Shown: positions 5,444-40,130, numbered from the stretch's first letter. The stretch: 64,000 bases of DNA from Flavobacteriales bacterium (GCA_016710685.1 JADJVC010000001.1:200948-264947); one strand, 5' to 3'. Made by a program: numbers and translations. Notes: generated by a model not told the origin, from the sequence alone.

Positions 5444-7174
5444 ATGACCATACGCGCAGCACCCGCAATTGAACGAGCAGCACTGGCCTTTATGGCCGTT
5501 GGCTTGCTCGCGGGAGCTTTGCTTTTGCCGCTTCGAGCTTTTCCGGCGGAAAAGGAAAACGCGAACACCACTGGCGAAGCCCGCCTCGCGCAGGCCAAAG
5601 CCCTTTTGCCCAGCGATCCGGATTCCGCATTGGTGCTCGCGTTACAGGCCGGGAAGCAGCTGGGGGAGTTTCCCTCCAAATGGCAAAAGGCCAGTGCGTT
5701 AATGGTTTTGGGCGATGCATACGCGGCAACGGGGGAAATGCCGGATGCCTTGGCCGCCTACCAGCGGGCGCAATTGGTGATGGAGGAGGTGCCGGAGGAT
5801 CAAGTTGCCGACACCTCGGTGATCCTTGCCCGCGCGGACCTTCAACTGAAAATTGGCACCTTGTATTTTACCCTGCGCGATTTTGAGAAGAGCGTTGCGC
5901 GGTTGACCGATGGCTTGAGCATGCTCGATGCGGCGCGCGACGTGTTGACCCTGGAGCAATTGAACAGTAGAAAGGTCCGGGCATTCAACAACATTGCCGG
6001 CGGCTATATCCAGCAGAAGGAATACGCGTTAGCGCTGCCTTATTTCCAACAGGCCGTGGCGATGAACCGGGCGTTGAACAATCCGCGTTATGAGAGCGCA
6101 CTGAACAACAACATCGGTATTTGCTACATGGAGACGGGCCAGCACGACCTGGCCGATCAGTATTTCCTGCGGGCACTTGCGGTGCGCAAGCAAACCGATG
6201 ACGTGCGCGGACAAGCACAAGTGCTGAACAGCATGGGCAAGAACCAGGCGCTCATGGGCCGGTTCAGCGCAGCACGCGTGCATTTCGAACAAGCGCTCGC
6301 GCTCGGCCGGTCGGCGGGCAGCTCCGCATCCATGGCCATCTCCTTGGAGTCGCTGGCCACCGCTTATGACACGCTGGGAGAGTACAAGGCCGCATTTGAT
6401 GCCTTCCGTGAGTACAAGGCGATCAACGATAGCCTTTACAGCTCCGAGGCGCGGACGAACATTGCCCGGCTGGAGGACCGGTTCCGCCGCGACAAGGAAA
6501 AGAAGGTTTTCGAGCTGGAAGCCCAGCGCAAGGATGCCGTGAACGCGCGCCAACGCATGTTGAACATCGCGCTCGCCGTGGCGATGTTCCTGCTGTTGCT
6601 TACCGCCTATCTGCTGTTCAAGGCCATGCGGTCCCGTGTGCGGACCAGCGCGCTTCAACAGGAAAAGCTCCGGCTGGAAAGTGAAAAACTCCGGTTGGAA
6701 AGCGAAAAACTGGAAACGGAAAAATCCGCGCTAACGGAAAGCTTGGCGTTCAAAGAGCGCGAGCTCACCGCCAATGCCTTGTTCCTGCTGAAGAAGAATG
6801 AACTTATCGAACACATCGTGGAACGGCTCCTCAAGGCCAAGTCCACCTTCCGGCAGGAGAACCAAAAGATCGTGCAGGACATCATCCACGAGTTGCAAGC
6901 GAGCCGGGATGAACACAATTGGGATGAGTTCGAAGCGCATTTCACGCGGGTCCACACCACCTTTTACCAAACCTTGCAGGAGCAGTTCCCTTCGCTTACG
7001 CCCAACGAGCGGAAGCTGTGCGCTTTCCTCCGGCTGAACATGAGCACCAAGGACATTTCGGCCATCACGCACCAGAGCCTGAACAGCATTACCGTGGCCC
7101 GGTCGCGCTTGCGGAAAAAGCTGCAGATCGATGGCGAGGATGTGCATTTGATCGACTTTTTGCAGTCCATTTGA
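5444..7174 (+). CDS. TPR-repeat / coiled-coil / single-TM / LuxR-type HTH transcriptional regulator (Bacteroidota family)
   Basis: TPR-like repeats; TM segment IALAVAMFLLLLTAYLLF; coiled coil LRLESEKLRLESEKLETEK; C-terminal GerE/LuxR HTH (ERKLCAFLRLNMSTKDISAITHQSLNSITVARSRLRKKL). Start chosen at MTIRAAP, downstream of the adhesin stop. Confidence 0.8.
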   Translation: MTIRAAPAIERAALAFMAVGLLAGALLLPLRAFPAEKENANTTGEARLAQAKALLPSDPDSALVLALQAGKQLGEFPSKWQKASALMVLGDAYAATGEMPDALAAYQRAQLVMEEVPEDQVADTSVILARADLQLKIGTLYFTLRDFEKSVARLTDGLSMLDAARDVLTLEQLNSRKVRAFNNIAGGYIQQKEYALALPYFQQAVAMNRALNNPRYESALNNNIGICYMETGQHDLADQYFLRALAVRKQTDDVRGQAQVLNSMGKNQALMGRFSAARVHFEQALALGRSAGSSASMAISLESLATAYDTLGEYKAAFDAFREYKAINDSLYSSEARTNIARLEDRFRRDKEKKVFELEAQRKDAVNARQRMLNIALAVAMFLLLLTAYLLFKAMRSRVRTSALQQEKLRLESEKLRLESEKLETEKSALTESLAFKERELTANALFLLKKNELIEHIVERLLKAKSTFRQENQKIVQDIIHELQASRDEHNWDEFEAHFTRVHTTFYQTLQEQFPSLTPNERKLCAFLRLNMSTKDISAITHQSLNSITVARSRLRKKLQIDGEDVHLIDFLQSI

Positions 7175-7313
7175 CCTTTTCGGGACGTGTTCAGTAAGTT
7201 ACTGTATGTCAGTAGGATACGGCGGCCTGTATGCTTGTTGTAAGGCCATTTTTCACGATTGTACCGGTGGTGTAAGCCGTTCCCGTGGGACTGTGCCGAT
7301 GATGTAAGGGTGT

Positions 7314-7544
7314 ATGTGGTATCAATGGGGATTTTCGGTTGCACATTGCGGCCATCCAACAAATCCCGTTTTGGAAACCACGAAAAAAGATGCCCTTCCG
7401 CCAGACGAACTTGAACGCCTGGAACAGTTCCATCAGGAGATGAAGGACGAGACGGAAGCTTGGCAGAAGCTGCTGGAGAACTTGGACAAATTGAAAAGCA
7501 AACGGACCGAAAACCATCAACCCCCAAAACCGACGAAACAATGA
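7314..7544 (+). CDS. Small hypothetical coiled-coil ORF, possibly translationally coupled to the downstream T9SS gene (stop TGA overlaps its ATG as ATGA)
   Basis: 76-aa ORF with a charged helical segment (ELERLEQFHQEMKDETEAWQKLLENLDKLK). The ATGA overlap with the gene starting at 7541 is the only support. Confidence 0.25.
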   Translation: MWYQWGFSVAHCGHPTNPVLETTKKDALPPDELERLEQFHQEMKDETEAWQKLLENLDKLKSKRTENHQPPKPTKQ

Positions 7545-9139
7545 AAACACGATACTCCCTTTTCGCAGGCCTTTGCCTGATGCTGGGCGCCGCCCCGGTG
7601 GTTCAGGCCCAACCCGGCTCGCTTGATCCAACATTCAACACCACGGGTTACCAGATACAGCCCGTCAATACCGGGGACGGGGCCCAGAAAATCCTGGTGC
7701 AAGACGACCAGAAAGTGCTGCTCATCGGCTTCAGTTTCGATGCTAACTATGTTGCACACACCATTGTGAAGCGGTTCTTGCCAGATGGCTCGGTCGATGC
7801 TGCTTTCGGCGATAACGGCACGGCGTCCTATGTAGTTTCTTTCGAGGCAGACACGTATTCGGCCATTCTGACCCCGGCAGGAAAAATTCTTTTGGCCGGG
7901 ACAACGGATGACTATCAGAGCCAGCAAATCCTTTTGATCCAGCTCAACGAAGATGGTTCCAAGGACCTCGCATTTGGTGATCAGGGCGTAGTGGTGCAAA
8001 GCATTGGCCTGGTTACCGAAAATGGCCATGACAATGCCTACGACGTAGCGCTGGACGCTGCCGGAAACATTGTTATCTGCGGAAGCAGCTATGATGAAAA
8101 TTTTGTGCCCCGCCCGATCGTATCGCGGTTCTCGCCAGCGGGCGTGCTCGATACCACGTTTGGTGTGGATGGCGTAGCTACCATCCCGGTGAATGCCGTG
8201 GGAAGCAACGCATTTAAAGGCGTGGTGATCCAGCCAGATGGCAAAATTGTCGCGTCGGGCTATTTTGGGAACACGGAGTTGTGGTACGTTATGCTCGTGG
8301 TGCGTTTCAATACGGATGGCACGCTGGATCCCTCTTTCGGCGATGCTGGCATCGTGAAGTACAACTACAGCAATGTAGACGATGAAGGGGAAGACTTGAA
8401 GTTGACCCCGGACGGCTCCATTTTGGTGTGTGGCATCTCCGCTACGGCAAGCTACAACTACAGCGCGTTGTTGGTTAAATTCAATCCTGCAGGTGCGCTT
8501 GACCTCAGCTTCGGTAGTGAAGGCGTTGTTTTTGAGGACTTGGGCACGTTCGATTTTGCATCGAACCTGGCAGTGATGCCCGACGGAGGTATTGTAATGA
8601 CCGGAACTTCTGGGTCAGCTCCGCCAAGCATTAACTTCGGCATAGCTGCGTGGAAGTACACGGCAAGCGGCACGCCGGATATGACCTTCGGGACAGGCGG
8701 GGTTTCATTGCCCGTTATACCAACGTACGGCGCCATGATCTATGCCATGGGAGTGCAGGCCGATGGGAAAATTCTCGTTGGTGGCCAAGCCCGCACAAGC
8801 AGCAATCAAAATTACTTCCTGCTGGCGCGGTTGGAAAACGATTTCTCCATCGGGGTTCCTGAGTTGAGCGGTACCACCGCAGCGGTGGTGTTCCCAAACC
8901 CGGCAACGGCTAACTCCACATTAAGCCTGCAGATCTCGGAAACGGTTCAACCGGATGCCCAGATCAGCCTGTACGCGGCAGACGGCCGGTTGGTTTTCAC
9001 CTCCCAAGCCGGCGGAATGCAGCGTGATGCACAACGCATCATTTTCCAGCTTCCCGTCGATCTTGCACCCGGCATCTACCAGCTCGCCATACAACAGCAG
9101 GGTACACGCCGATCCGCAAGTCTGCTGGTCACTCACTAA
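7541..9139 (+). CDS. T9SS cargo protein with delta-60-type beta-propeller repeats and Por_Secre_tail (type A) CTD
   Basis: Signal peptide MKTRYSLFAGLCLMLGAAPVVQAQ; repeated LDPTFN/DAAFGDNG/DLAFGDQG/DTTFGVDG/DPSFGDAG/DLSFGSEG/DMTFGTGG motifs; C-terminal AAVVFPNPATANSTLSLQ...LLVTH CTD. Confidence 0.8.
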   Translation: MKTRYSLFAGLCLMLGAAPVVQAQPGSLDPTFNTTGYQIQPVNTGDGAQKILVQDDQKVLLIGFSFDANYVAHTIVKRFLPDGSVDAAFGDNGTASYVVSFEADTYSAILTPAGKILLAGTTDDYQSQQILLIQLNEDGSKDLAFGDQGVVVQSIGLVTENGHDNAYDVALDAAGNIVICGSSYDENFVPRPIVSRFSPAGVLDTTFGVDGVATIPVNAVGSNAFKGVVIQPDGKIVASGYFGNTELWYVMLVVRFNTDGTLDPSFGDAGIVKYNYSNVDDEGEDLKLTPDGSILVCGISATASYNYSALLVKFNPAGALDLSFGSEGVVFEDLGTFDFASNLAVMPDGGIVMTGTSGSAPPSINFGIAAWKYTASGTPDMTFGTGGVSLPVIPTYGAMIYAMGVQADGKILVGGQARTSSNQNYFLLARLENDFSIGVPELSGTTAAVVFPNPATANSTLSLQISETVQPDAQISLYAADGRLVFTSQAGGMQRDAQRIIFQLPVDLAPGIYQLAIQQQGTRRSASLLVTH

Positions 9140-9166
9140 TTCTTGGACATTGAAAAACAGAAAACC

Positions 9167-11221
9167 ATGAAAGCATTTTACCTCCCCTTCGCCTTTGCCG
9201 CGCTTGCCGCAGTAACGGCCTCCGCGCAGTACAGCGCGACCATCACCATTACGGACTTCAGTACCGGTTTGCCGGTGGAGAATGCGACTGTTGCGCGCGG
9301 TGGCACTTCCATGACCACGAATGCAGCCGGTCAAGCCATTTTCCCCGGATTGCCGAACAACACGTACAGCTTTTCCGTGACCGCCACATGCTACTATCCC
9401 GGTGCCGGAATGATCACGATCGCTGGTGCCAATGCCGCGACATCCCTGGGACTGGATCCCATGGCCACCAACAACCTGTTCTTCTTCATCGGCGACCCGA
9501 TGGCGATCACGAGTGCATTCGTTGAAGTGACCAACGGAGGCAACTACTACGCGAGCTTCACGACGTTCGACACCTTCGGCGGCGAAATGCTGGCGGATGT
9601 GCCCTTCGGCGAAATGAGCTATACGATCACTACGCCCTGCTACGAAACGGTGACCGGCACAGTAACGGTTGATTGCAACAACGGCGACGGCATCGCGGTT
9701 TTTGAGAATCCGGGACCGGCCACCACTAACAACCTGTTCTTCTTCATCGGCGACCCGATGGCGATCACAGGCGCATTTGTTGAAGTGACCAACGGAGGCA
9801 ACTACTACGCGAGCTTCACGACATTCGACACCTTCGGCGGCGAAATGCTGGCGGACGTTCCCTTCGGCGAAATGAGCTATACGATCACGACGCCGTGCTA
9901 CGAAACGGTGACCGGCACAGTAACGGTTGATTGCAATAACGGCGACGGCATCGCGGTTTTTGAGAACCCGGCCCCAGCCACCACCAACAACCTGTTCTTC
10001 TTCATCGGCGACCCGATGGCGATCACGGGTGCATTCGTTGAAGTGACCAACGGTGGCAACTACTACGCGAGCTTCACGACATTCGACACCTTCGGCGGCG
10101 AAATGCTGGCGGACGTTCCCTTCGGCGAAATGAGCTATACGATCACCACACCGTGCTACGAAACAGTGACCGGCACAGTAACGGTTGATTGCAACAACGG
10201 CGACGGCATCGCGGTTTTTGAGAACCCGGCCCCGGCCACCACCAACAATCTCTTCTTCTATATCGGCGATCCGCTGGCGATCATCGGTGCATTCGTTGAA
10301 GTGACCAACGGTGGCAACTACTACGCGAGTTTCACGACGTTCGACACCTTCGGCGGCGAAATGCTGGCGGACGTGCCCTTCGGTGAAATGTCCTACACCA
10401 TCACCACGCCGTGCTTTGAAACGGTCACCGGCACGGTGATGGTTGATTGCAACAACGGCGACGGTATCTTGGTGGCAGCCGATCCAGGACCCGCAACCAT
10501 GAACAATTTGTTCTTCTACATCGGCGACCCGCTGGCGATTCTTGGTGCTACAGTGAATGTGACCGATGGCGGTAGCTACAATGAGAGCTTCGTGACGTTC
10601 GACACCTTCGGCGGCGAAATGCTGGCGGATGTGCCCTTCGGCGAGATGAGCTACATGATCAGCGCACCTTGCTACGAGACCGTGACCGGAACAGTGACGG
10701 TGGACTGCAACAATGGTGACGGCATTGCGATCTTCACCAATCCTGAACCGGTCGTCTTGGACGTTACAGTCGACGTGTCCGGGAATACCCTCATGGCCGC
10801 AGCCACCGGCATGGAGTACCAATGGGTGGATTGCGATAATGGCAATGCCCCGATCGATGGTGCCACGGCACAGAGTTTCCAGCCTACGGAAAATGGCAAC
10901 TATGCCGTGGTGATTTCCGACGGGGACTGCTCGCAAACCTCAACCTGCACAGCGGTGATCGTTACCGGGGTTGACCAGGTCGAAGGCCGGGATGCTTTCG
11001 CAGTTTACCCCAATCCGTTCGCTGACAGGCTCACTGTTCGAACCAATGGAAAGTTGGGTCCCGTCCGTGTGGAACTCCTCAGCTTGACCGGCCAAGTAAT
11101 CCTGGACGAGAGCGGCTCCGGCATGGAGATCAGCTTGCTGACTTCGGAGCTTCCTTCCGGTAGCTACTTGCTGCGTCTTTCGTCGGAAAGCGCCCGCACA
11201 ACGATCAGCGTGGTGAAGTAA
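9167..11221 (+). CDS. T9SS cargo protein containing five tandem 86-aa repeats and Por_Secre_tail CTD
   Basis: Signal peptide MKAFYLPFAFAALAAVTASAQ; repeat TNNLFFFIGDPMAIT...CNNGDGIAVFENPAPAT x5; C-terminal FAVYPNPFADRLTV...TISVVK CTD. Confidence 0.8.
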   Translation: MKAFYLPFAFAALAAVTASAQYSATITITDFSTGLPVENATVARGGTSMTTNAAGQAIFPGLPNNTYSFSVTATCYYPGAGMITIAGANAATSLGLDPMATNNLFFFIGDPMAITSAFVEVTNGGNYYASFTTFDTFGGEMLADVPFGEMSYTITTPCYETVTGTVTVDCNNGDGIAVFENPGPATTNNLFFFIGDPMAITGAFVEVTNGGNYYASFTTFDTFGGEMLADVPFGEMSYTITTPCYETVTGTVTVDCNNGDGIAVFENPAPATTNNLFFFIGDPMAITGAFVEVTNGGNYYASFTTFDTFGGEMLADVPFGEMSYTITTPCYETVTGTVTVDCNNGDGIAVFENPAPATTNNLFFYIGDPLAIIGAFVEVTNGGNYYASFTTFDTFGGEMLADVPFGEMSYTITTPCFETVTGTVMVDCNNGDGILVAADPGPATMNNLFFYIGDPLAILGATVNVTDGGSYNESFVTFDTFGGEMLADVPFGEMSYMISAPCYETVTGTVTVDCNNGDGIAIFTNPEPVVLDVTVDVSGNTLMAAATGMEYQWVDCDNGNAPIDGATAQSFQPTENGNYAVVISDGDCSQTSTCTAVIVTGVDQVEGRDAFAVYPNPFADRLTVRTNGKLGPVRVELLSLTGQVILDESGSGMEISLLTSELPSGSYLLRLSSESARTTISVVK
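9467..10757 (+). repeat. Five tandem 258-bp direct repeats inside the CDS; copies 1-3 nearly identical at DNA level, copies 4-5 diverged
   Basis: AACAACCTGTTCTTCTTCATCGGC recurs at 9470, 9728, 9986, 10244 and 10502, an exact 258-bp period. Confidence 0.9.
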
Positions 11222-25756: not shown

Positions 25757-26127
25757 GCGTTGGTGATTTTGGTCTTGCAGGTGTTTGGCAAAGATGGGGC
25801 CAACCTGAAAATCAGCATGATCGAACTGGTACTACCGGCGGATTGCGCATCATTGGAACGCTGAAAGGCACGTGCGGCTATTCCTCAGTTGAAGAAGAAT
25901 GGGAGCTTCAAATCCTGTCGATCCTGTTAATCCTGCTCAAAACCCCGAAACTCCCGCAAGTGTTCCAGCCTTCCAGGAATGTGCGTTCCAACTGGGCTGG
26001 GTCACTTGTGGGCATCTTGATTTTATTCATAACACCTCCTAATCCTTTCCCCAAGCGCCGCCAAGACCGATCTTTGCGTCCAAATGATGGGCAAACCTCT
26101 CTTTCAGCCCAAAAGCTCCTGATCAAT

Positions 26128-28502
26128 TTGGATTTTCCACGTCGCCTTCATCTTTTCATCGCCACGGTCGCGGTGGCAACATCGCACACCGTGGCGCTGG
26201 GCCAATGTGGTACGTTCATCACCGCTTTCCCATCCAGCGAAGGTTTTGAGAATGCGGCTGTTTGGGTCAGTGGTGGCACTGCCAACGATTGGGCATGGGG
26301 CGTTCCAGCGCATCCCAACATCAACACGGCCGGTGGTGGATTGAAGGCATGGTGTGTGGGCGGGCTTTCCGGGACGTTCTACAACAACAACGAACGGTCT
26401 TGGTTGGAAAGCCCCTGTTTCGATTTTTCGAGCTTGAACACGCCGCGCATTTCCTTCAAGATCTACTGGGAAGTGGAGCGCCAGTACGATGGTATGATCC
26501 TGCAGTATTCCACCGACGGTGGTACCACGTACAACAACGTGGGTGCATTCGGGGAAGCCCGGATTGCAACACACAGAACTGGTTCAATTCGTCCAACATC
26601 ACCAACTTGGCCACTGGTATCAGCCCCAAGCACGGTTGGAGCGGCCGTGCTGGTAGTACCGTCGGCAGTTGCCAAGGCGGAAGCGGTAGCAATGGTTGGG
26701 TGACCGCCAGCCACTGCCTGGGCATGTTGGCGAATGCCCCCAGTGTGCGGTTCCGTTTTTCTTTCGGCGCGGGAAGTGTGTGCAACAACTACGACGGCAT
26801 CGCCATCGACGACATCTTGATCGATGAGGCACCGCCCGTCATTGCCGCATTCAGTGGCGACTGCACCGGCACTACCGTTGATTTCATCAACTCTTCCACA
26901 ACGTGCCCGAATCTCTTTTCGTGGAACTTCGGCGACCCCGGCTCCGCGCAGAACACTTCATCCCAGGAGAATCCCTCACATACGTACGCGGACCCCGGCA
27001 CCTATACCATCACGCTAACGGCCACCGACGGTTGCGGCGCTTCCGGCACGCACACCATGGACATCAGCGTGCTGGGTGTTACGCTCGCCACCACGCCGCC
27101 CACCTGCGGTGCGGACAATGGATCGGTGGAAGCCACCGTTTCCGGTGCGAACGGCGCGGTGAACTACCTCTGGTCGCCGGGTGGTGCGACAACACAAACG
27201 CTCGCAAACGTGGGTGCTGGCACCTACACGGTCACCGTTTCCGGGGTGAACAGTTGTCCGGTAACCGCCACCGCCACGCTTACTTCCAGCGGCACCACTT
27301 TAGCCGTTGATGTGGCCCACACGGACGTTTCGTACGCTGGCTTAAGCGATAGAACGACAACAGCGACAACGGTGGGCGGCGTGGCTCCGTTCAACTTTTC
27401 GTGGGCCCCCGGCAGTGAAAATTCAGCAGCTATCAGCAACCTGGCCGCCGGCGATTACACCTGCACCGTAACGGACGGCCAAGGATGCAGCGCGCAAGCC
27501 ACCGCCACGGTGGGCGCACCCGAACCGTTCGGCATAACGGCCGGGCCGGACACTGCCGTGTGTGCCGGAAATGCCGTGCTGTTGCAAGCCGAAGCCAACG
27601 GCGGCACGCCGGGCTACACCTTCAACTGGCTGCCTGATGGACCGGCGGTTACGCCCGCAGCCACCACCACCTACACCGTTGTAGCCACCGATGCCAACGG
27701 CTGCCAATCCGCCCCGGAAACCACCGTCGTAACCGTCTCTTCCAGCTTCACGCCCAGCTTCACGTCTACGGAAACTACGGGCTGTTCTCCGCATTGCATC
27801 ACCTTTTATCCCACGCCAGCAGGGGCTTCGGACTACTTTTGGGATTTCGGCGACGACGGTTCCGGCATTCTGGAATCGCCGACGTATTGCTACCAAACCG
27901 GCGGATTGTTTCCTGTGAGCCTCACCGTTACCGATGCCACCGGCTGCACCGGAACGGTAACCACACCGGACTATGCGGACATCCATGGCACGCCCACGGC
28001 CAGCTTCACACCATCACGCTACGTCACCACCATTGACGCACCCACCGTTCAGCTCAGCAACACCAGCCAGAACAGTACTTCGTGGTTCTGGACTTTCGAC
28101 CAAGGCGACACTGCCATGCAGCGCTCACCCAGCGTAACGTTCCCCGCCGTGGGTTGCTACACCGTGGCACTGGAAGCCAGCAACGACCTGGGTTGCCGCG
28201 ACACCGCCAGTGTGGAGATCTGTGTGGAAGACGCCTTCCTGCTGTTCATGCCCAACGCATTCACCCCGAATGACGACGGCATCAACGATGTGCTTCTGCC
28301 CAAAACTTCGGTGCGCAACCCCGCCGATTTCGAACTGAAGATCTTTGACCGCTGGGGCAAACAGGTCTTCAGCACGGAAGATATTTACGCGGGGTGGGAC
28401 GGAGGCACCACAACGAGCGGCATCTACATCTGGAAGATCTGGATTACCGATACGGATCAAAACGGCCACGAGCTGGTGGGCCATGTGGCGCTGTTGCGGT
28501 AG
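26128..28502 (+). pseudogene. MAM-like domain + SprB repeats + PKD domains + CHU_C CTD surface protein, interrupted by a frameshift at ~26556 (GGGGAAG context); start uncertain (TTG at 26128 or upstream)
   Basis: ORFs 25843..26703 and 26262..28502 overlap in different frames. Restoring one A in GGGGAA-GCC gives a continuous ...GAFGESPDCNTQNWF... The N-terminal hydrophobic signal is RRLHLFIATVAVATSHTVALGQC; the C-terminus is MPNAFTPNDDGINDVLL...FDRWGKQVF. Confidence 0.6.
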
Positions 28503-32455: not shown

Positions 32456-32521
32456 ATTGCTAATTCCTAATTCCGGCTGCCGACACGGCTTGCGGAATTA
32501 GGAATTAGGAATTAGCAATTA
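32456..32521. terminator. Unusual AT-rich long hairpin (19-bp stem ATTGCTAATTCCTAATTCC ... GGAATTAGGAATTAGGAATTAGCAAT) between convergent genes, overlapping the peptidase stop codon; putative bidirectional terminator
   Basis: Inverted repeat with GGAATTA direct sub-repeats, followed by a T-run on the minus strand and located between the stops of 31607..32392(+) and 32519..34687(-). Confidence 0.6.
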
Positions 32522-34687
32522 TTTCCCCCCGGCAGGATACTTCGGCACAACCCCGGTATTCTTGAAAAAGAACGCCCACTTGTCCGCTTGCTCGGCCACG
32601 ATCATGCTCGTAGGCTTTCCGGCACCGTGTCCGGCATTCGTTTCAACGCGGATGAACACCGGTGCATCGCCTTCCTGTGCAGCTTGCAGCGTGCTGATGA
32701 ACTTGAAACTGTGTGCAGGCACCACGCGGTCGTCGTGGTCTGCCGTCATCACCATGGTAGCGGGGTAGTTCGCGGGCTTGATGTTGTGCAGCGGTGAATA
32801 GGCGTGCAGGTATTCAAACTCCTCCTTGCTGTTGTCCGCGCTTCCGTATTCAGGCGTCCAGCCGAAGCCGGCGGTGAATTTCTGGAAACGCAGCATGTCC
32901 ATTACGCCAACGGCGGGGAAGGCCACCGCGCACAGGTCCGGGCGTTGGGTCATCACCGCGCCCACCAACAGGCCGCCGTTACTGCCGCCCTCAATGGCCA
33001 ATCGGTCCTTGGAGGTCCACTTCTGCGCCACGAGGTATTCCGCTGCTGCGATGAAATCGTCGAACACGTTCTGCTTTTTCTCCTTCATGCCGGCTTTGTG
33101 CCAGTCCTCGCCGTACTCACCGCCGCCGCGCAGGTTCGCCATGGCGAACACGCCGCCCTGTTCCAGCAAGATCATCCGGCTGGTGCTGAAACTCGGCGAT
33201 AGGCTGACGTTGAATCCGCCGTAAGCGTAGAGCAACGCCGGGTTCTTTCCATCCTTGGCCAAGCCTTTTTTATGGACGATGAACATGGGCACTTTGGTGC
33301 CGTCCTTGCTCGTGTAAAATTCCTGCTCGGTGGTGAATTGTTCCGGATCGAACTTCAACTCCGGACGGAAGTACAGGTCGCTCTTGCCCGTGGCGTAGTC
33401 GTATTTGTAGATGCTCCCCGGATCGGTGAACGAGGTGAAGCTGTAGAAGGAATACGTGTCTTCGCGCAGCCCGCCGAAACCGCCCGCGGTGCCGATGCCT
33501 GGCAAGGTGATTTCCTGCCCACCGGTGCCGTCTGTAGCGTAGCGGTAGATGCGTGTGGTGGCATCTTTCAAGTAGCTGGCGAAGAGGTTTCCGCCACCTG
33601 TCACAACACCTTCCAACAAGTCTTTTTTCTGGGGGATCACATCCTTCCAGTTCGCGCTGTCCGGTTGTGCCGGATCCACGCCCACCAAGCGGTAGTTGGG
33701 TGCGTTCACATCCGTCATCACAAGGAATTGCCCGCTCTTGGGCTCGAATGCCATGATGGATGTTTTGTGGTTGAAGCCGCGCTGTAGCGGGGTCCATTGC
33801 GTGGCCGGTGTGGGCAGCACGCCTTTGCGTAAGTCGTAGAAGTATTGCTCAAAGCCGTCGGTGCCGGTGCTGATGTACAACGTGGCGAATTCCTCGCCTT
33901 CAGTGGTGCCCGCGCCAACATAGAGGTTGGGTTCGGTATCGCTGGCCCACACCAGTGCGTCCTTCGCCTGCGGGTCGCCCAGCTTGTGGTAGTACACACG
34001 CTGCCACTGGTTAGCGCCGCTGAGTTCCATGCCCTTTTTCGGCTCCGGATAGCGACTGTAGAAAAAGCCGTCCTTGAACCACGCCACGCCGCTGAACTTG
34101 GCCCACAGCAGGGTGTCCGCCATCGGCTTCATGGACTTCAGGTCCCACAAAGTGATGTCTTGCCAGTCGCTGCCGGCCTTTTGGATGCTCACCGCCATGT
34201 AGCGGTCGTTTTTGCTGCTGCCCATCAAGCCGATGCTCGTGGTGCCTTTCGGGTCCACCACGTTGGGGTCGATGAACACCGTGTCTTTGCCCTCCAGCCC
34301 GTGGCGCACATAGATCACGCTCTGGTTCTGCAAGCCACTGTTGCGGTAGGTGAAAAACAGGTCGCCCACCTTGCTCGGCGCGCCGGTCTTGGGAAAGTTG
34401 AAAAGCTCCTCATACCGCTTCGCGATGGCGTCACGAAAGGGAATGTCCGCCAAATAAGCGTTGGTCACGGCGTTCTCGCGCTTCACCCAATCCGCCGTTT
34501 CGGCGCTGGTGTCGTTCTCCAACCAGCGGTACGGATCGGCCACTTTCGTGCCGAAGTAATCGTCCACCACGGTGGTGTCCTTGCGGGTTTCCGGGTAGGC
34601 GATCTTCTGCATGGGCTTATCGGTAGGTGCGGTGGAAGTGCCGCAAGCTGCGAGCAGCAGAACGGCGGCGGGAAGGGCTTTTTGCAT
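32519..34687 (-). CDS. Prolyl oligopeptidase (S9A prolyl endopeptidase), lipoprotein
   Basis: Signal/lipobox LLLAACG; beta-propeller N-domain; catalytic domain with GGSNGGLLVG (Ser) and ...ADHDDRV... (Asp), H in GHGAG. Confidence 0.9.
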   Translation of the reverse strand: MQKALPAAVLLLAACGTSTAPTDKPMQKIAYPETRKDTTVVDDYFGTKVADPYRWLENDTSAETADWVKRENAVTNAYLADIPFRDAIAKRYEELFNFPKTGAPSKVGDLFFTYRNSGLQNQSVIYVRHGLEGKDTVFIDPNVVDPKGTTSIGLMGSSKNDRYMAVSIQKAGSDWQDITLWDLKSMKPMADTLLWAKFSGVAWFKDGFFYSRYPEPKKGMELSGANQWQRVYYHKLGDPQAKDALVWASDTEPNLYVGAGTTEGEEFATLYISTGTDGFEQYFYDLRKGVLPTPATQWTPLQRGFNHKTSIMAFEPKSGQFLVMTDVNAPNYRLVGVDPAQPDSANWKDVIPQKKDLLEGVVTGGGNLFASYLKDATTRIYRYATDGTGGQEITLPGIGTAGGFGGLREDTYSFYSFTSFTDPGSIYKYDYATGKSDLYFRPELKFDPEQFTTEQEFYTSKDGTKVPMFIVHKKGLAKDGKNPALLYAYGGFNVSLSPSFSTSRMILLEQGGVFAMANLRGGGEYGEDWHKAGMKEKKQNVFDDFIAAAEYLVAQKWTSKDRLAIEGGSNGGLLVGAVMTQRPDLCAVAFPAVGVMDMLRFQKFTAGFGWTPEYGSADNSKEEFEYLHAYSPLHNIKPANYPATMVMTADHDDRVVPAHSFKFISTLQAAQEGDAPVFIRVETNAGHGAGKPTSMIVAEQADKWAFFFKNTGVVPKYPAGGK

Positions 34688-34809
34688 GGGGTGGGGGATG
34701 AAGGGGTAAAAGTAGCTTGAACCGTTTGGGCCGAGCGATTCGGCTGGATTGGATCTGGCAGAAGGCCATTAGTCTCAATGGGCGTGTGGCAGGCAACGCG
34801 GTTGGTATT

Positions 34810-35104
34810 GGTGCGGTAGATTCGCTGCCCCGAGACAAAAAGCGGAACCCACAAGCCGATCAGTTGATGGACGCCCGAAAATACTACTTCTCTCTTCTCA
34901 CTTTTATCGGCTCCCTAACGCTGGGTTTTACGGCATCGGCGCAGTCACTGCAGGTCTTGGACGGCACAAGCCGCCAACCCGTGGTGGGCGCGGTGCTGAC
35001 TTCGACGGACCCGGCGCGGCAAGCCACTTCGGATAGCACCGGCAGGGTAGACCTCGCTGTTTTTCCGGACAGTGCTTGGGTGCGCGTTGAACACATCGCC
35101 TTCC
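34810..35104 (+). repeat. Copy A of a ~300-bp direct repeat: degenerate 3' end of a T9SS CTD gene + promoter/RBS/first ~80 codons of the TonB-dependent receptor at 37692 (5' gene fragment 34867..35154)
   Basis: ~85% identity over the first ~110 bp and ~98% over the last ~190 bp with 37638..37936. The fragment encodes MDARKYYFSLLTFIGSLTLGFTASAQSLQVLDGTSRQPVVGAVLTSTDPARQATSDSTGRVDLAVFPDSAWVRVEHIAF and then diverges exactly where REP1 begins. Confidence 0.8.
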
Positions 35105-35744
35105 CACTAGCGCGAGCGTCCGCGCTCGTGCTTTCTCTACGCCGAAGCATCTAACTTTCCACCATGAGTGAGAGCTACAAATTTGTTGAGGGTCATGCTC
35201 ACTTCATCACGTTTGCGGTTGTGGGCTGGGTGGATGTATTCACACGACGCGCATATCCCGAGTTCCTATTGGAGAACTTGGCTTTTTGTCGAAAAAACAA
35301 AGGGCTTCGCCTTTATGACCTTGTGATCATGCCGAACCATTTGCATTTGATCGCAGCGGCTGCAAATGGCAGTTTGGGAGAGATTATGCGTGACTTCAAG
35401 ACCTTCACGAGCAAGGAACTGGTGAAGCGTATCGCCGCGAACCCCCAAGAAAGCCGGAAGGAGTGGATGCTCCGTGTGTTCCGCGAGCATGGTGCGGCAA
35501 ATCCACACAACAAGGACCACCAATTTTGGCAACAGAGCAACCGTCCGATCATTCTGGACAAGCCGGAATTGTTTGACCAGCGTAGGCGCTACCTTCGCGA
35601 GAATCCGTTACGTGCAGGCTTGGTAAATGATGAGTCAGCGTACATGTGGAGCAGTGCCAACCCGCATTTGGAGTTTGAGTTTGATGAAGCATAGAAACCG
35701 AGGAGATGGAAAAAGAGGCACGAGCGTGGACGCTCGCGCCAGTG
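35105..35744 (+). mobile_element. REP–RAYT–REP unit: REP-associated tyrosine transposase gene flanked by inverted REP hairpins
   Basis: REP1 35105-35132 CACTAGCGCGAGCGTCCGCGCTCGTGCT. REP2 35717-35744 GGCACGAGCGTGGACGCTCGCGCCAGTG is the reverse complement with 27/30 identity. Each folds into a ~10-bp imperfect stem. Confidence 0.75.
35164..35694 (+). CDS. REP-associated tyrosine transposase (RAYT; IS200/IS605 Y1-transposase family)
   Basis: 176 aa; HuH motif MPNHLHLI; C-terminal catalytic-Tyr helix RRRYLRENPLRAGLV; typical RAYT length; flanked by inverted REPs. Confidence 0.8.
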   Translation: MSESYKFVEGHAHFITFAVVGWVDVFTRRAYPEFLLENLAFCRKNKGLRLYDLVIMPNHLHLIAAAANGSLGEIMRDFKTFTSKELVKRIAANPQESRKEWMLRVFREHGAANPHNKDHQFWQQSNRPIILDKPELFDQRRRYLRENPLRAGLVNDESAYMWSSANPHLEFEFDEA

Positions 35745-36747
35745 TGGGACCTAACATCAGTCGCTTTCGACCCTGCGGACGAAAACACGATTTACATCGG
35801 TTATGCCTCGTCCCAATTCCTTTCCGGTTACAATGAACCTTATGGAAACAGGATGGTGTTTAAAATGGACGTTTCCGATTTGTCTCAATACCCAGCAGGA
35901 GATCTCCCATTTGATTGTCCGGGAACTCCTTGCGCCGACATTACCATGAACCTGCCGAATACGTTTATTTCCATTGGGGCCATGATGGCGGAGCAGGGTA
36001 GCGACGGTGGTCTCTACGTGGCTACTGAAGCCGGCGTGTTCTTTACCGATAACAAACGCATCGCAGCATTCAATCCTGTGCAGCCGGAAGATGCCGATGA
36101 CATGTCAAACACCAGTGGATGGGTAAAATTGGGCGGCAGTTTGCCACATGTCGGTTCGCGAGGGATTGAGGCGAACTACCAAGTGAATCGTGTGCGCGTA
36201 GGTCTGTATGGTCGGGGTGTATGGGAACATCATCTGCATTGCCCAGATACTTTGCAATTCAATGAAGCAGGGACATATGGAGCCGACAGGTACTTGGAGG
36301 CTATGCAAAATATCACTTCGGAAGCGATAGTTCCTACGGGACTCGATCTGAAGTATCGTGCTGGAGAGGAAGTCCGCCTTACACCCGGTTTTCATGCAGA
36401 ACCGGGTACACGCTTCCATGCCTTCATTCATCCTTGTGACGCACCCGGCAATAGCTTCCATCCGAAAGCGATGCAAGCTGGCGCACCGGAAGCTGAAATT
36501 GAAAACGAGTCTGTTTATGTGGGAATGGAACTTTACCCCAACCCCGCCAATGGGTCTTTCACAGTACGGGCCAATTTCATCTCGGAGAATGGAATAGCGA
36601 CCATTCGAGTATTTGGCCCTACAGGCAATTTGGCATTGTCATCGGTAATGCGTGGGCCGCAGCAGTTTATAGATTCCAGTGGCTTGCATGGCCTTTACAT
36701 GGTTGTGGTTGAATGTGCCGGTGTCCAACAGACCAGAAAAAATTATT
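35706..36747 (+). pseudogene. 5'-truncated T9SS cargo gene fragment (BNR/sortilin-like beta-propeller C-terminus + Por_Secre_tail CTD); no signal peptide, begins inside REP2
   Basis: ...GGLYVATEAGVFFTDNK..., then the CTD VYVGMELYPNPANGSFTVRANFISENGIATIRVF...LYMVVVE. The same frame continues without a stop into the next gene. Confidence 0.45.
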
Positions 36748-37647
36748 TTGCAATGAGAAAGTGGCTGTCACTCATCACCTTCTTTAGTATCAGTAGCGGT
36801 ATTTCTGCACAGTTCTACCCAGATTCCACAGGAACATGGTGCATCCGTGATTTGAATAATTCTACAGCATTAGATATAACCATGGAGATGAGAGTAGGTT
36901 ATGACACAATTATCAACGGGAATACCTATCAACTAATAGATGAATTTCACGGAGATGATAATTGGAGTGTACCTGAATATATTAAAACTTACTACGTTAG
37001 ATCAGATACTGCGGGAAATGGTTTTATCTACATTCCTGCTTTATCGGAAGAATACCTAACTGGAAATATTAATGTTAATGTTGGGGATACGATTGAAAAT
37101 TTATATATGGGGTTTTTAAGCAGCATTGCAATTGTTGATAGCGCAGTCATATTAACTAATGCGTCTGATACCGTGAGGCGCGTCTATGTTCGGCAACCAT
37201 GGATAGGCAATTCGTTTTCTTCAATTAAGTCATTTTGGCAATCTGGAATGGGTTGTTCATTTTGGACCATATATCAATTATGATGATTTTCAAGACTTGA
37301 CGTGTGTAATAGCCGACGGTCGATATACATTTTCATTAAGTATTCCAGGAAACCATGCCGATCAATTGCCAATTGTACCCTGCGAGTGTGTTGCAATTGC
37401 GACCAATGTGGAGGAAGGTATTAGCCGTGTACTCCCAAGTATCTTCCCCAACCCCTCAACCAGTACATTCACCATAAGGAATGCCTCGTGTTCAAACGAA
37501 ATAGCCGTATACACCACCACCGGCCACCGAGTATGGCAAGGCACCGGCAATACCATAGACCTAATCGCGCAGCCACCCGGCGTGTACACGGCGGTGGTGG
37601 CCACGGAGCGGGGTAGGCAGGCGGTGCGGTTAGTAGTGGTGCAGTAG
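36748..37647 (+). pseudogene. Mosaic T9SS cargo gene: low-GC (~35%) N-terminal module with signal peptide fused (across a frameshift near 37210-37285) to a GC-rich Por_Secre_tail CTD
   Basis: MRKWLSLITFFSISSGISAQ signal at 36748; AT-rich 36740-37420. Frame 0 stops at 37283, while frame +1 is open from 37207 and encodes ...SIFPNPSTSTFTIRNASCSNEIAVYTTTGHRVWQG...VRLVVVQ*. Confidence 0.45.
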
Positions 37648-37936
37648 ATTCGCTCCCCCGACACAAAACGCGGAACCCACAAGCCGATCAGTTGATGGAC
37701 GCCCGAAAATACTACCACGCATTTCTCACTTTCATCAGCTCCCTTGCGCTGGGTTTTACGGCTTCGGCGCAGTCACTGCAGGTCTTGGACGGCACAAGCC
37801 GCCAACCCGTGGTGGGCGCGGTGCTGACTTCGACGGACCCGGCGCGGCAAGCCACTTCGGATAGCTCCGGCAGGGTAGACCTCGCTGTTTTTCCGGACAG
37901 TGCTTGGGTGCGCGTTGAACACATCGCCTTTGAACC
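37638..37936 (+). repeat. Copy B of the ~300-bp direct repeat (authentic promoter and 5' end of the TonB-dependent receptor)
   Basis: See copy A. Confidence 0.8.
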
Positions 37937-40130
37937 TTTGCGGATCCGTACGTCGGCCTTGCGAAAGCTCGGCGGTCCGCTTATGCTCATGCCGCGCACT
38001 ACGGAACTGGATGCCTTCGTGTTTTCCGCCAGCCGCTTCAAGGAAGCCCGCCGGGATGTACCCGAGCAGATCGACGTGCTTGCCCGCAAGGAGATCGCCT
38101 TCGATGCGCCGCAAAGCACCGGCGACCTGCTGCAGAACAGTGGTGCGCTCTTCGTGCAGAAAAGCCAGATGGGCGGCGGAAGTCCCGTGATCCGTGGCTT
38201 CGAGGCCAGCCGTGTGCTGTTGGTGGTGGACGGCGTGCGCATGAACAACGCCATCTACCGCGCCGGCCATTTGCAGGACATCATGACGGTGGACCCGAAT
38301 GCCTTGGAACGCATCGAGGTGATCAGCGGCCCGGCCTCCGTGGTCTACGGCAGCGATGCCTTGGGCGGCGTGGTACACCTGATGACACGCAGCGCGCCCT
38401 TCGCCGACAGCGCGGGGACGCACCTGTTCCACGGCGGCGCATTTACGCGCTACAGCTCGGCCAACAACGAACGCACGGCCCATGCCGATGTGAGCTTGAG
38501 CAGCCACAAACTTTCGAGCTTCACCAGCATCACAGCCAGCGATTTCGGGGACCTGCGCCAAGGGAGCCAACGCCTTGCAGCCTATCCGGATTTCGGGAAG
38601 AAGCCGTTCACGGTGGACCGCATCAACGGCACGGACGTTGCCGTTGTGAACCCGGACCCGGATGTGCAGACCGGCACCGGCTATCAACAGTTGGACGTGT
38701 TGGAAAAACTGCGTTTCCGTAGTGGCGCGCACACCGTGCACCAGCTCAATCTGCAACTGAGCACCAGCAGCGATGTGCCGCGCTACGACCGGAGTTCTAT
38801 TTACTCCACGGACAGTGCGGGGGCGATCGTTCCCGCCAGTGCTGAATGGTATTACGGTCCGCAGCAGCGCTTGCTGGCGGCCTATACGTTGGAATTGGAA
38901 GGGCGCGGCTTCTATGATCAAAGCCACATCACCGCCAATGCGCAACGCGTGGTGCAAAGCCGCCACAACCGGAATTTTGGAAGCAGCACACGGAAAAACC
39001 GCAACGAGGAAGTCACCGTTTTCGGCCTCAATGCGGATTTTGAAAAGCGCTTCGCGAAACACGAATTGCGCTACGGCTTGGAGTTGACGCGCGATGCGGT
39101 GACCTCTACTGCGTTTGCAGAGGACATCGGAACGGGCGCCACTTCTTACCTCGGTTCGCGCTATCCGGGCACCAGCACCATGACGCATGCCGCGGTGTAC
39201 CTCACGCACACCGTGGAACTGAGCCGCAAATGGCTGCTGAGCGAAGGCGTTCGGCTTACCAATGTGGGCCTGCGCAGCACCTTCAGCGATGCGGCGGATT
39301 TCCAGTTCCTCAACGGCACGGTGGCGCAGGACAACACAGCGTTCAATTGGCGGGCAGGTGCGGTTTTTTCTCCGGAAAAATCGTGGCGCTTCACCGCGTT
39401 GGCGAGCACCGGCTTCCGCGCGCCCAACGTGGACGATCTCGGCAAGGTGTTCGACAGCACGCCCGGCCAAGTGATCGTGCCCAACCCTGATCTGCGTCCG
39501 GAACACACGCTGAACGTGGAAGCGGGCATCAACAAGATCTTCGCGGAACGCTACACCCTCGATCTGCAAGCCTTCCACACGTGGTACACCGATGCGCTGG
39601 TGGTGGCGCCGTTCACCGCGAACGGTCGCGACAGCCTCCTTTACGATGGCTCGCTGAGCCAAGTAACGGCATTGGTGAATGCGGGCAAGGCGACCATAAC
39701 CGGCGGCAGCGCGCAGTTGGCCGCCAAATTCACCACGAACTGGTCGCTCAGCAGCGGCATTATGTACACCTACGGGCGCGTTGAAACGGACAGCACACCC
39801 ACGCCGTTGGACCACGTGCCACCGGTTTACGGGCGAACAGCATTGGTATACTCCACAAAGAAGTTGCACGCCGAATTGTATGCCTTGTACAACGGCTGGA
39901 AACGGTTGGCCGACTACAGCGGAAGCGGCGAGGACAACTTGGCCAGCGCCACGCCGGACGGAATGCCAGCTTGGTGGACACTAAGCGTACGTAGCGAGTA
40001 TTCTTTTTCGCAGACCTTTTCGGTGCAGGCCGGCGTGGAGAATATCCTTGACCGCAACTACCGGGTTTTTGCCAGTGGCGTTAGCGCTCCTGGTCGGAAT
40101 GTGATGGTGGCGTTGCGGGTGGATTGGTAA
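37692..40130 (+). CDS. TonB-dependent receptor (N-terminal carboxypeptidase-like regulatory domain, plug, 22-strand barrel)
   Basis: Signal peptide FLTFISSLALGFTASAQ; plug motifs IEVISGPASVVYGSDALGGVVHL; C-terminal ...NVMVALRVDW. Confidence 0.85.
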   Translation: MMDARKYYHAFLTFISSLALGFTASAQSLQVLDGTSRQPVVGAVLTSTDPARQATSDSSGRVDLAVFPDSAWVRVEHIAFEPLRIRTSALRKLGGPLMLMPRTTELDAFVFSASRFKEARRDVPEQIDVLARKEIAFDAPQSTGDLLQNSGALFVQKSQMGGGSPVIRGFEASRVLLVVDGVRMNNAIYRAGHLQDIMTVDPNALERIEVISGPASVVYGSDALGGVVHLMTRSAPFADSAGTHLFHGGAFTRYSSANNERTAHADVSLSSHKLSSFTSITASDFGDLRQGSQRLAAYPDFGKKPFTVDRINGTDVAVVNPDPDVQTGTGYQQLDVLEKLRFRSGAHTVHQLNLQLSTSSDVPRYDRSSIYSTDSAGAIVPASAEWYYGPQQRLLAAYTLELEGRGFYDQSHITANAQRVVQSRHNRNFGSSTRKNRNEEVTVFGLNADFEKRFAKHELRYGLELTRDAVTSTAFAEDIGTGATSYLGSRYPGTSTMTHAAVYLTHTVELSRKWLLSEGVRLTNVGLRSTFSDAADFQFLNGTVAQDNTAFNWRAGAVFSPEKSWRFTALASTGFRAPNVDDLGKVFDSTPGQVIVPNPDLRPEHTLNVEAGINKIFAERYTLDLQAFHTWYTDALVVAPFTANGRDSLLYDGSLSQVTALVNAGKATITGGSAQLAAKFTTNWSLSSGIMYTYGRVETDSTPTPLDHVPPVYGRTALVYSTKKLHAELYALYNGWKRLADYSGSGEDNLASATPDGMPAWWTLSVRSEYSFSQTFSVQAGVENILDRNYRVFASGVSAPGRNVMVALRVDW

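Follow-up and report, generated by a model that had tools for sequence, protein, structure and literature searches.

Gene order at the locus and the direct repeats

We analyzed a 64,000-nucleotide stretch of DNA from a Flavobacteriales bacterium (GCA_016710685.1, JADJVC010000001.1:200948-264947), called the window below; coordinates given without a contig name are counted from its first base. The locus of interest lies between a prolyl oligopeptidase (POP, family S9) gene at 32519-34687 on the minus strand (Pfam Peptidase_S9_N and Peptidase_S9) and an intact TonB-dependent receptor (TBDR) gene at 37695-40130 on the plus strand, which encodes 811 aa from its ATG (Pfam Plug, TonB_dep_Rec_b-barrel and CarboxypepD_reg). 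The islet between them always has the same order: a dead copy of the TBDR 5′ end, a RAYT gene between two repetitive extragenic palindromes (REP-RAYT-REP), a 5′-truncated cargo gene of the type IX secretion system (T9SS) that begins where REP2 ends on its outer side, a second cargo gene that is intact, and the start of the live TBDR. On balance, and with moderate confidence, we read it as an accessory, strain-variable islet that has been reshaped by cassette replacement and by recombination between its bracketing repeats and, more tentatively, by the RAYT.

An earlier reading made from the sequence alone (the sequence-only reading) had described direct repeats of about 300 bp that duplicate the upstream region and 5′ end of the TBDR, with lower identity in their first part than in their last. 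Both points were borne out. Copy A (34788-35102) and copy B (37616-37930), both on the plus strand, are direct repeats of 315 bp each, with starts 2828 bp apart. They differ at 20 positions (93.7% identity), and the differences are strongly graded: the first 148 bp hold 19 of them (87% identity), the remaining 167 bp a single one (99.4%; Fisher p = 5e-6). Each copy comprises the final 30 nt and stop codon of a gene for a T9SS C-terminal sorting domain (CTD), a 47-nt spacer, and the TBDR start codon, signal peptide and 79 codons. The live copy is B, which holds the end of a 297-aa cargo gene, the spacer and the TBDR 5′ end. Copy A is a dead duplicate, as had been proposed: its open reading frame (ORF) begins at 34867, runs into REP1 and stops at 35154. 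The CTD-gene end had also been called degenerate, which it is not in copy A, where the tail (...RQATRLVLVR*) is the intact end of a 477-aa gene carried by other strains of the species.

As a side observation, a motif (CCACAAGC[CT]GAT[CT]AG[CT]TGATG) lies directly upstream of and overlapping the TBDR start in both copies, at 34855-34869 and 37683-37697. It is similar to a repeat (GATTAGCTGATG) found 3′ of cargo genes in tandem arrays from JGI metagenomes (L085, 1189-1200 and 1241-1252), and it may be a shared regulatory or recombination motif.

The islet has a GC content of 48.1%, compared with 58–61% in its flanks. The RAYT unit stands at 52.5%, and the lowest values are found at 36755-37400 (38.1%). 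GC at third codon positions (GC3) is 42–60 in the islet genes versus 75–79 in the TBDR and POP genes. The 35–50% GC first reported for the DNA between the repeats is thus roughly right, with the qualification that only about 650 bp fall below 40%.

The REP-RAYT-REP unit

We set the ends of the RAYT unit by comparing it with units of 78–80% identity that occur in unrelated contexts in other Flavobacteriales, where homology extends from CCCAC or CCCTAC to GTGTGGG. On this basis the unit occupies 35103-35748 (plus strand), beginning CCCAC and ending GTGTGGG. The REPs follow the pattern GCGAGCGTCC[AG]CGCTCG with a CCCAC/GTGGG tag. REP1 (35105-35131, plus strand) forms a hairpin with a 10-bp stem and a 4-nt loop (DNA fold −11.6 kcal/mol, z = −4.7), and REP2 (35718-35744, minus strand) one with a 10-bp stem (−11.8 kcal/mol, z = −3.8); the two are inverted relative to each other and 93% complementary.

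Between the hairpins, at 35164-35694 on the plus strand, lies a gene for a 176-aa protein with an HUH motif (NHLHL) and a catalytic tyrosine in the context RRYLRENP. The protein passes the NCBIfam RAYT model NF047646 (82.6 bits, cut-off 80) and scores 26.3 against Pfam Y1_Tnp (cut-off 23), and it fails the IS200 equivalog NF033573 (20.4 bits, cut-off 55). Residues H59, H61, Y143, N147 and P148 are invariant or nearly so across 28 RAYT homologs. A PDB search with the single sequence gave no match, and a profile search was needed: a profile built from the homologs matched PDB 4er8 (E. coli TnpA-REP), with both the HUH motif and the tyrosine of Y-x3-NP in register. Its model score, its motifs and the inverted REPs on either side identify the protein as a RAYT, and its relatives behave much like insertion sequences (IS).

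A look-up of the exact RAYT protein gave 22 contigs, and all of the 10 that were listed place it between the POP and TBDR genes. Homologs with 89% identity in other species occupy other loci, between BamA and DeoC in one case and beside a type I restriction-modification system in another. Partial units are also seen next to complete ones: on contig L090 (5509-6573) a truncated RAYT copy is followed directly by a full unit, and on L089 (5880-6700) the 3′ part of a second unit comes after a complete one. The sequences suggest that the RAYT unit is, or formerly was, mobile and inserts into its own copies.

The islet is not a composite transposon in form, as it holds a single RAYT unit and the bracketing repeats are TBDR sequence. 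Nor does it look like an integrase-type genomic island: there is no integrase domain in the islet and no tRNA in the window, and the repeats, 315–375 bp of coding and promoter sequence, are unlike short att sites. The islet matched no plasmids or phages, and no Rfam family was found in it.

T9SS cargo genes of the islet

The first base past the RAYT unit begins a 5′-truncated T9SS cargo gene (35749-36756, plus strand) that retains the C-terminal ~335 aa with GCX_COOH and a type A CTD. Full-length homologs have 1056–1092 aa (L094, L095). In other assemblies it is annotated as a 349-aa ORF starting at 35706, to which protein P0001 is 100% identical. The sequence-only reading had recognized a truncated T9SS fragment and had placed its start inside REP2; the truncation stands, and the gene begins at 35749, just outside the RAYT unit. 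The second cargo gene (36755-37647, plus strand) encodes 297 aa and is itself uneven in composition, with 38% GC in its N-terminal part and 57% in its CTD. The 349-aa and 297-aa proteins score 28.6 and 30.5 bits, respectively, against the CTD model TIGR04183 (cut-off 23). The 297-aa gene is a weak positional homolog of a 279-aa gene in the related genome L002.

In the window these two genes are disrupted. Relative to five other assemblies, an extra A in the run at 36732-36737 fuses them, and an extra T in the run at 37257-37260 shifts the frame of the second and splits it. The resulting 525-aa ORF (35706-37283), which had been taken for a mosaic gene, is confined to the window; the other assemblies have intact 349-aa and 297-aa genes, the latter being intact in L082 and in the JGI contigs. 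Elsewhere in the window, comparison with L082, L083, L084 and the JGI contigs shows a further 1-bp deletion near 26557. The 1-bp indel pattern would be typical of homopolymer errors in long-read assemblies, and we judge from the comparison that the 525-aa ORF is not biological.

Different cargo genes, found at two or more loci, share the last ~150 bp of the CTD at 90–95% identity, and for this reason the CTD tail could be used as a portable homology arm. Genes sharing it include cargo genes at a second, SpoIID-adjacent locus (L096) and those of tandem cargo arrays (L085 to L088). Protein P0151, whose CTD tail is 92% identical, was considered as a relative of the TBDR locus and rejected because it belongs to the SpoIID-adjacent locus.

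Positions 36270-37654 of the window are 99% identical to one such array, and the homology stops 7 nt past the stop codon. The array is represented by three contigs of 1693 bp from three JGI metagenomes (L086, L087 and L088) whose ends overlap by 128 bp, giving a 1565-bp unit in which a 190-bp linker separates the 297-aa gene from a 191-aa gene. This unit either is repeated in tandem, as identical cargo cassettes, or forms a circular molecule. Contig L085 carries a neighboring diverged unit with a 251-aa paralog. A ~62-nt element (AAACTCACAAGTGACCCAGCCGTTGCTGGAGCGCACAGTTGCGGAGCGGCTGGAACACTTGCGAGAG) of about 80% identity recurs beside T9SS cargo genes: at 25951-26010 of the window (minus strand), at 75-137 and 1303-1364 of L085, at 10553-10743 of L096 and at 7793-7850 of L002. 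It is located where the 191-aa gene stops matching the 349-aa fragment of the window, and in the JGI contigs two ~50-bp direct repeats (GATTAGCTGATG...CGACTTCGCTCGG) stand ahead of it. Possibly it represents a further family of small repeats.

Two islet types in the same species

Two NCBI contigs (L082 and L083) have the arrangement of the window with both repeats, at 99.7% identity to it (35 SNPs, single-nucleotide polymorphisms). A different islet is present in 8 of the 10 listed RAYT contigs (L097 to L101 and L104 to L106, called sister strains here), and at least six JGI/ENA assemblies span both repeats in this variant arrangement. The left TBDR fragment of the sister strains is 60 bp longer, so that their repeat measures 375 bp, with 98% identity between copies. 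After it come a T and a partial extra REP (REP0), the sequence GTAGTTT, and the RAYT unit. Beyond REP2 the sister strains have a truncated cargo gene of 100 aa, consisting of the CTD only, and a 477-aa gene with DUF5122 and CTD domains. In their right copies the A-type sequence sets in with the very first base of the repeat, so both of their copies are A-type, as is copy A of the window at every diagnostic site. The two copies of the sister strains differ at 8 of 374 aligned positions. Five of the seven coding differences, in L097, are synonymous third-position changes, and for that reason the sister-strain copies look like two functional alleles, not like a gene and a decaying copy.

The junctions vary as well. 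A 161-bp tandem duplication of the RAYT 3′ end and REP2, in which the outer end of REP2 is fused to an internal RAYT position, is present in L097 (6422-6743), L099, L101 and L104, and also in L106, whose contig ends ahead of the cargo genes; it is missing from L098, L100 and L105. The locus exists with two cassette types (349 + 297 aa and 100 + 477 aa) and three junction variants.

The window's own junction between copy A and REP1 (…CGCCTT joined to CCCACTAG…) matches the sister-strain sequence except that 105 bp are absent. The lost DNA comprises 59–60 bp of TBDR, REP0 and GTAGTTT, and a TT microhomology leaves the end point ambiguous by 2 nt. It was first noted that the two repeat copies part exactly where REP1 begins. 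The copies do diverge after 35102, with the unit starting at 35103, so that this part holds within the 2-nt ambiguity; since the joint is the sister sequence less 105 bp, the exact fusion to REP1 is a secondary deletion and not the original boundary.

We put the chance that the duplication is an assembly artefact, produced by repeat expansion or chimeric joining, close to nil. Metagenome-assembled genomes and long-read assemblies carry a general risk of this kind, and the window does contain two homopolymer indels. That is all that speaks for an artefact, which had been named at the outset as the case that would undo the interpretation. Independent assemblies, from different samples and assemblers, run through both repeats and the islet, and the copies can be told apart at fixed diagnostic sites.

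Searches with the exact protein sequences of the TBDR and of the downstream histidine kinase returned no matches, so the right flank contributed no additional strains. Within the POP gene, 15 of the 35 SNPs between the window and L082 lie inside 1 kb (33320-34355), where another near-identical contig, L001, matches the window with a single SNP; between 27358 and 31737 the window and L082 have no SNPs. The clustering indicates a recombination tract between strains, which would make local strain relationships mosaic.

Islet-free relatives

The comparison with close relatives that the sequence-only reading had proposed did yield sites without the islet. In the sister species L006 (82% nucleotide identity, 1.1-Mb contig), the POP gene adjoins the orthologous TBDR gene with no islet, no RAYT is present within 10 kb of the locus, and the CTD tail is not recognizable at the POP-TBDR junction. 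The orthologous TBDR is immediately preceded by T9SS cargo genes in L002 and in L094, a more distant relative, and the 279-aa gene of L002 has a CTD tail in common with the window locus. In L094, the cargo array is followed at 6817-9208 by three ORFs: one of 215 aa with only 31% identity to the N-terminus of the TBDR, one of 306 aa that has no annotation, and a homolog of the TBDR that is similar only from residue ~171; the TBDR 5′ region of L094 may have been rearranged too.

The second islet-free locus is much closer. L001, a 3283-bp Logan contig from SRR25168023, runs from POP through a single repeat copy to TBDR and is 99.7–99.8% identical to the flanks of the window. Its repeat copy is A-type up to 34935 and has a T at 35038, which otherwise occurs only in window-type copy B; the outgroups, every A copy and the B copies of the sister strains have A at this position. 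We therefore rejected L001 as an ancestral empty site. The contig is an A/B chimera that would reflect either loss of a window-type islet by recombination between copies A and B, with a crossover at 34936-35037, or a k-mer-graph path that skips the islet loop. The ancestral islet-free state is accordingly read from L006.

These observations bear on a Campbell-type origin, in which a circle carrying ~375 bp of the TBDR upstream region and 5′ end entered an empty POP-TBDR site by a single crossover, the reverse event gave the L001 pattern, and the RAYT was either a passenger or the maker of the circle. Such an origin would explain an insert flanked by direct repeats of target homology, two copies with different functional alleles (as a recipient and a donor would contribute), an apparently precise loss that leaves an A/B chimera, and cargo cassettes found as circularly permuted 1693-bp contigs in three metagenomes. 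We nevertheless find it rather unlikely. In the left copy, 30 nt from the tail of a CTD gene are retained, which are not recognizable at the empty L006 site, no circular form of the islet was seen among the contigs, the 1693-bp contigs are possibly tandem arrays, and several independent junctions at REP ends would be left unexplained.

Meaning of the identity gradient

All 19 differences in the first part of the repeat set window-type copy B apart from window copy A, from both sister-strain copies and from L001. The diverged first part of copy B, which we call h1′, is confined to its initial ~150–250 bp, extending from 37616 to somewhere between 37763 and 37866, and has 19–20 differences from the A-type. 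It spans the CTD tail, the spacer and the signal peptide, and a normal signal peptide is still encoded. Divergence between the window and L097 is 16% at 37447-37696, intermediate over the next 250 bp, and about 1.6% beyond that, which is the background of the TBDR gene; the drop comes after ~37946. The most economical explanation is that a diverged functional allele, which would have arrived with the 349/297 cassette, took the place of the 5′ part of copy B. Gene conversion homogenizing the 3′ part, which had been offered as the cause of the gradient, is then not needed.

The duplication itself is older than, or at least independent of, the low-GC cassette of the window, since L097 to L106 have it in a longer form, with the same RAYT and a different cassette. 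This divides the earlier proposal of a RAYT/REP-associated event that brought in foreign DNA. An accessory, compositionally atypical islet bounded by a RAYT/REP unit is what we find; a single event that both made the repeats and imported the low-GC DNA does not agree with sister strains that carry the duplication with a different cassette.

A version of that proposal can be kept if the whole foreign islet, including a diverged copy B, was inserted once and conversion later evened out the last 167 bp of the repeat in the window lineage and its full length in the sister strains. The absence of the islet from L006, its atypical GC and GC3 and the sharp identity break all fit such a history. So does the finding that the A-type is nearer the outgroups than the B-type at 7 of 10 coding diagnostic sites, so that copy B looks imported. 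Against this, conversion tracts in the sister strains would have to reach the exact first base of homology and rebuild the functional end of the 477-aa gene. Neither the difference in cassettes nor the 60-bp-longer sister repeat, ending at another REP, is explained, and the mostly synonymous differences between the L097 copies point to allelic exchange, not homogenization. We consider a single insertion unlikely and prefer replacement of the 5′ part of copy B.

Proposed history and the possible part played by the RAYT

In the history that we propose, homologous replacement of the cassette would have produced the window type, starting from either a sister-type islet or a precursor common to both. 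The left crossover would lie in or next to the RAYT unit and the right crossover in the TBDR 5′ end, at 37763-37866; the donor would be a relative with the 297-aa gene directly upstream of its own TBDR. The 105-bp deletion at the REP end came in addition. In a second step the repeats would serve as substrates for RecA-type recombination, and deletion of the islet would give the L001 pattern. Exchange of cassettes by homologous recombination, with the RAYT unit or its neighborhood as the left arm and the CTD tail plus TBDR 5′ end as the right arm, and loss through the repeats seem fairly safe to us as sequence-based conclusions. The first 375-bp duplication could have come from a REP-end-mediated duplication with a later deletion, from the pasting of a copy at the REP0 end, or from a circular islet that integrated in Campbell fashion.

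A weaker component of the proposal is that the RAYT, as an HUH endonuclease, would cleave at the end of a REP and join ectopic single-stranded DNA to it, yielding duplications and adjacent deletions. Within this one species, five partners abut the same REP terminal nucleotides: TBDR codon ~98 (at REP0), TBDR codon 79 (at REP1), and the 349-aa fragment, the 100-aa fragment and an internal RAYT position (all at REP2). Nested or tandem partial units on L089 and L090 share these ends. The recurrence of the same terminal nucleotides at junctions is a hint of RAYT involvement. The joints lie 6–12 nt outside the REP stems, at the conserved outer end of the unit, a position that fits HUH-type cleavage better than stalling at a hairpin. 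The claim that the RAYT makes the joints at the REP outer ends is nonetheless a weak one.

The REPs could instead be mere fragile or slippage sites, where replication stalls and templates switch with no catalysis by the RAYT. Their hairpins are stable (about −11 kcal/mol, z −3.7 to −4.7), the window deletion junction has its TT microhomology, and PMC1428787 reports or cites REPs at some amplification junctions and at the F′128 join point. The offset of the junctions from the stem base, and the joining of the same terminal nucleotide to five different partners and likewise in other species, make this account very unlikely in our estimation.

A bolder possibility lies in the opposite direction. 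The REP-RAYT-REP unit could be an active "joint-maker", in which the RAYT cleaves its own REP outer ends and ligates ectopic or incoming single-stranded DNA to them; with the CTD tail and TBDR as anchor, it would capture, truncate, duplicate and swap T9SS cargo genes. We regard this as improbable. A surrogate right-end cleavage site at 37930 resembling the REP2 end was considered and dropped, as the sole similarity (ACAGTGCTTGGG versus CCAGTGTGGG) lies ~20 nt from the junction.

Several points weigh against our preferred history of cassette replacement, repeat recombination and a lesser RAYT contribution. The replacement is reconstructed: a donor contig joining the 297-aa gene, h1′ and a TBDR was not found in the homolog searches. 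The 297-aa protein had only identical JGI copies and relatives at ≤43% identity as homologs, so that no donor of the 297-aa gene with h1′ emerged there. A metagenome scan with the N-terminal part of the 349-aa fragment likewise gave one locus (L095, 58% identical), which has the full-length 1092-aa form, and no donor. It is possible to read the exchange in reverse, with copy B of the window as the original and the B copies of the sister strains homogenized by conversion from A. L001 is a single 3.3-kb k-mer-graph contig, and an assembler that skipped the islet loop would generate an identical chimera. Strain relationships are blurred by recombination, the POP gene of the window being nearer to L001 (1 SNP) than to L082 (15 SNPs). 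As for the RAYT, plain slippage accounts for the deletion with TT microhomology at the joint of copy A and REP1 equally well as RAYT cleavage. No further REP copies were found in the 64-kb window beyond the two flanking the RAYT, with 2–3 mismatches allowed, nor in the flanks of the related loci examined; with only two REPs in 64 kb, there is no sign of current RAYT activity on dispersed REPs. Finally, the left flanks of the units (CCTT, CTCA(C)T, TCACC, GGCC and CGTA) share no consensus of the kind that an IS200/IS605-type target would give.

Comparison with known systems

What RAYTs do for their hosts is, to our knowledge, still an open question. Here, one RAYT occupies the same locus in all listed contigs of a Bacteroidota species, and its REP outer ends coincide with five rearrangement joints across co-occurring strains. 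If the RAYT makes these joints, the locus permits a direct test of RAYT-driven genome plasticity, and if the unit is a joint-maker in the full sense described above, it would provide a natural-population phenotype for a RAYT. If the RAYT is a bystander, this is an ordinary recombination-driven accessory islet. The RAYT aside, the locus shows how the repertoire of T9SS-secreted proteins beside a receptor is shuffled between strains through two homology arms, the CTD tail and the receptor 5′ end.

The islet shares features with several known systems. Like the REP/RAYT systems of E. coli (TnpA-REP/YafM) and the REPIN-RAYT systems of Pseudomonas (PMC3116915, PMC5581495, PMC3479197), it has an HUH/Y1 protein of ~176 aa that passes the NCBIfam RAYT model, two inverted flanking REP hairpins, and a locus that is the same across the strains listed and different in other species. 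It differs from them in its Bacteroidota host, in having no dispersed REPs or REPINs in the 64-kb window, and in the position of the unit at the edge of a variable cargo islet, with its ends serving as rearrangement junctions. The nested and tandem partial units in relatives are more IS-like.

In elements of the IS200/IS605 family, cleavage is expected a few nucleotides outside the hairpins. The unit resembles members of this family (IS608 and ISDra2, with their single-strand "peel and paste" transposition) in its Y1 HUH enzyme and subterminal hairpins, and in having no terminal inverted repeats or DDE features and no target duplication. In contrast to them, its RAYT falls far below the IS200 cut-off (20.4 vs 55), its left flanks have no conserved target tetranucleotide, and several copies per genome are not in evidence.

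REPs have been reported at the novel joints of duplications and in F′ formation in enterobacteria (Kofoid et al. 2003, as cited in PMC1428787). The presence of REP palindromes at novel joints is common to those duplications and our locus, but the enterobacterial events are recombination between two REP copies, whereas here a REP end is joined to unrelated coding DNA. HUH elements that capture genes in a one-ended or rolling-circle manner (IS91/ISCR) offer an analogy only: one end of the element stays constant and adjoins captured genes that vary and are cut short where they meet it. The IS91/ISCR enzyme is a Y2 Rep-like protein and not a Y1 RAYT, and no oriIS or terIS was recognized here.

Further parallels are Campbell insertion-duplication and the homology-facilitated illegitimate recombination of naturally transformable bacteria, which also leave direct repeats of target homology around foreign DNA. 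In these processes, as in the islet, one side is homologous (the TBDR 5′ end), the other is illegitimate or an element end, and the insertion can be reversed through the repeats. Unlike such products, the islet has no known circular or plasmid intermediate, its non-homologous junction is a REP end, and its repeats have a mosaic allelic history. Taken together, the locus is best seen as a new example of known processes, namely variation of cassettes through recombination at an accessory islet with a RAYT/REP unit on its border.

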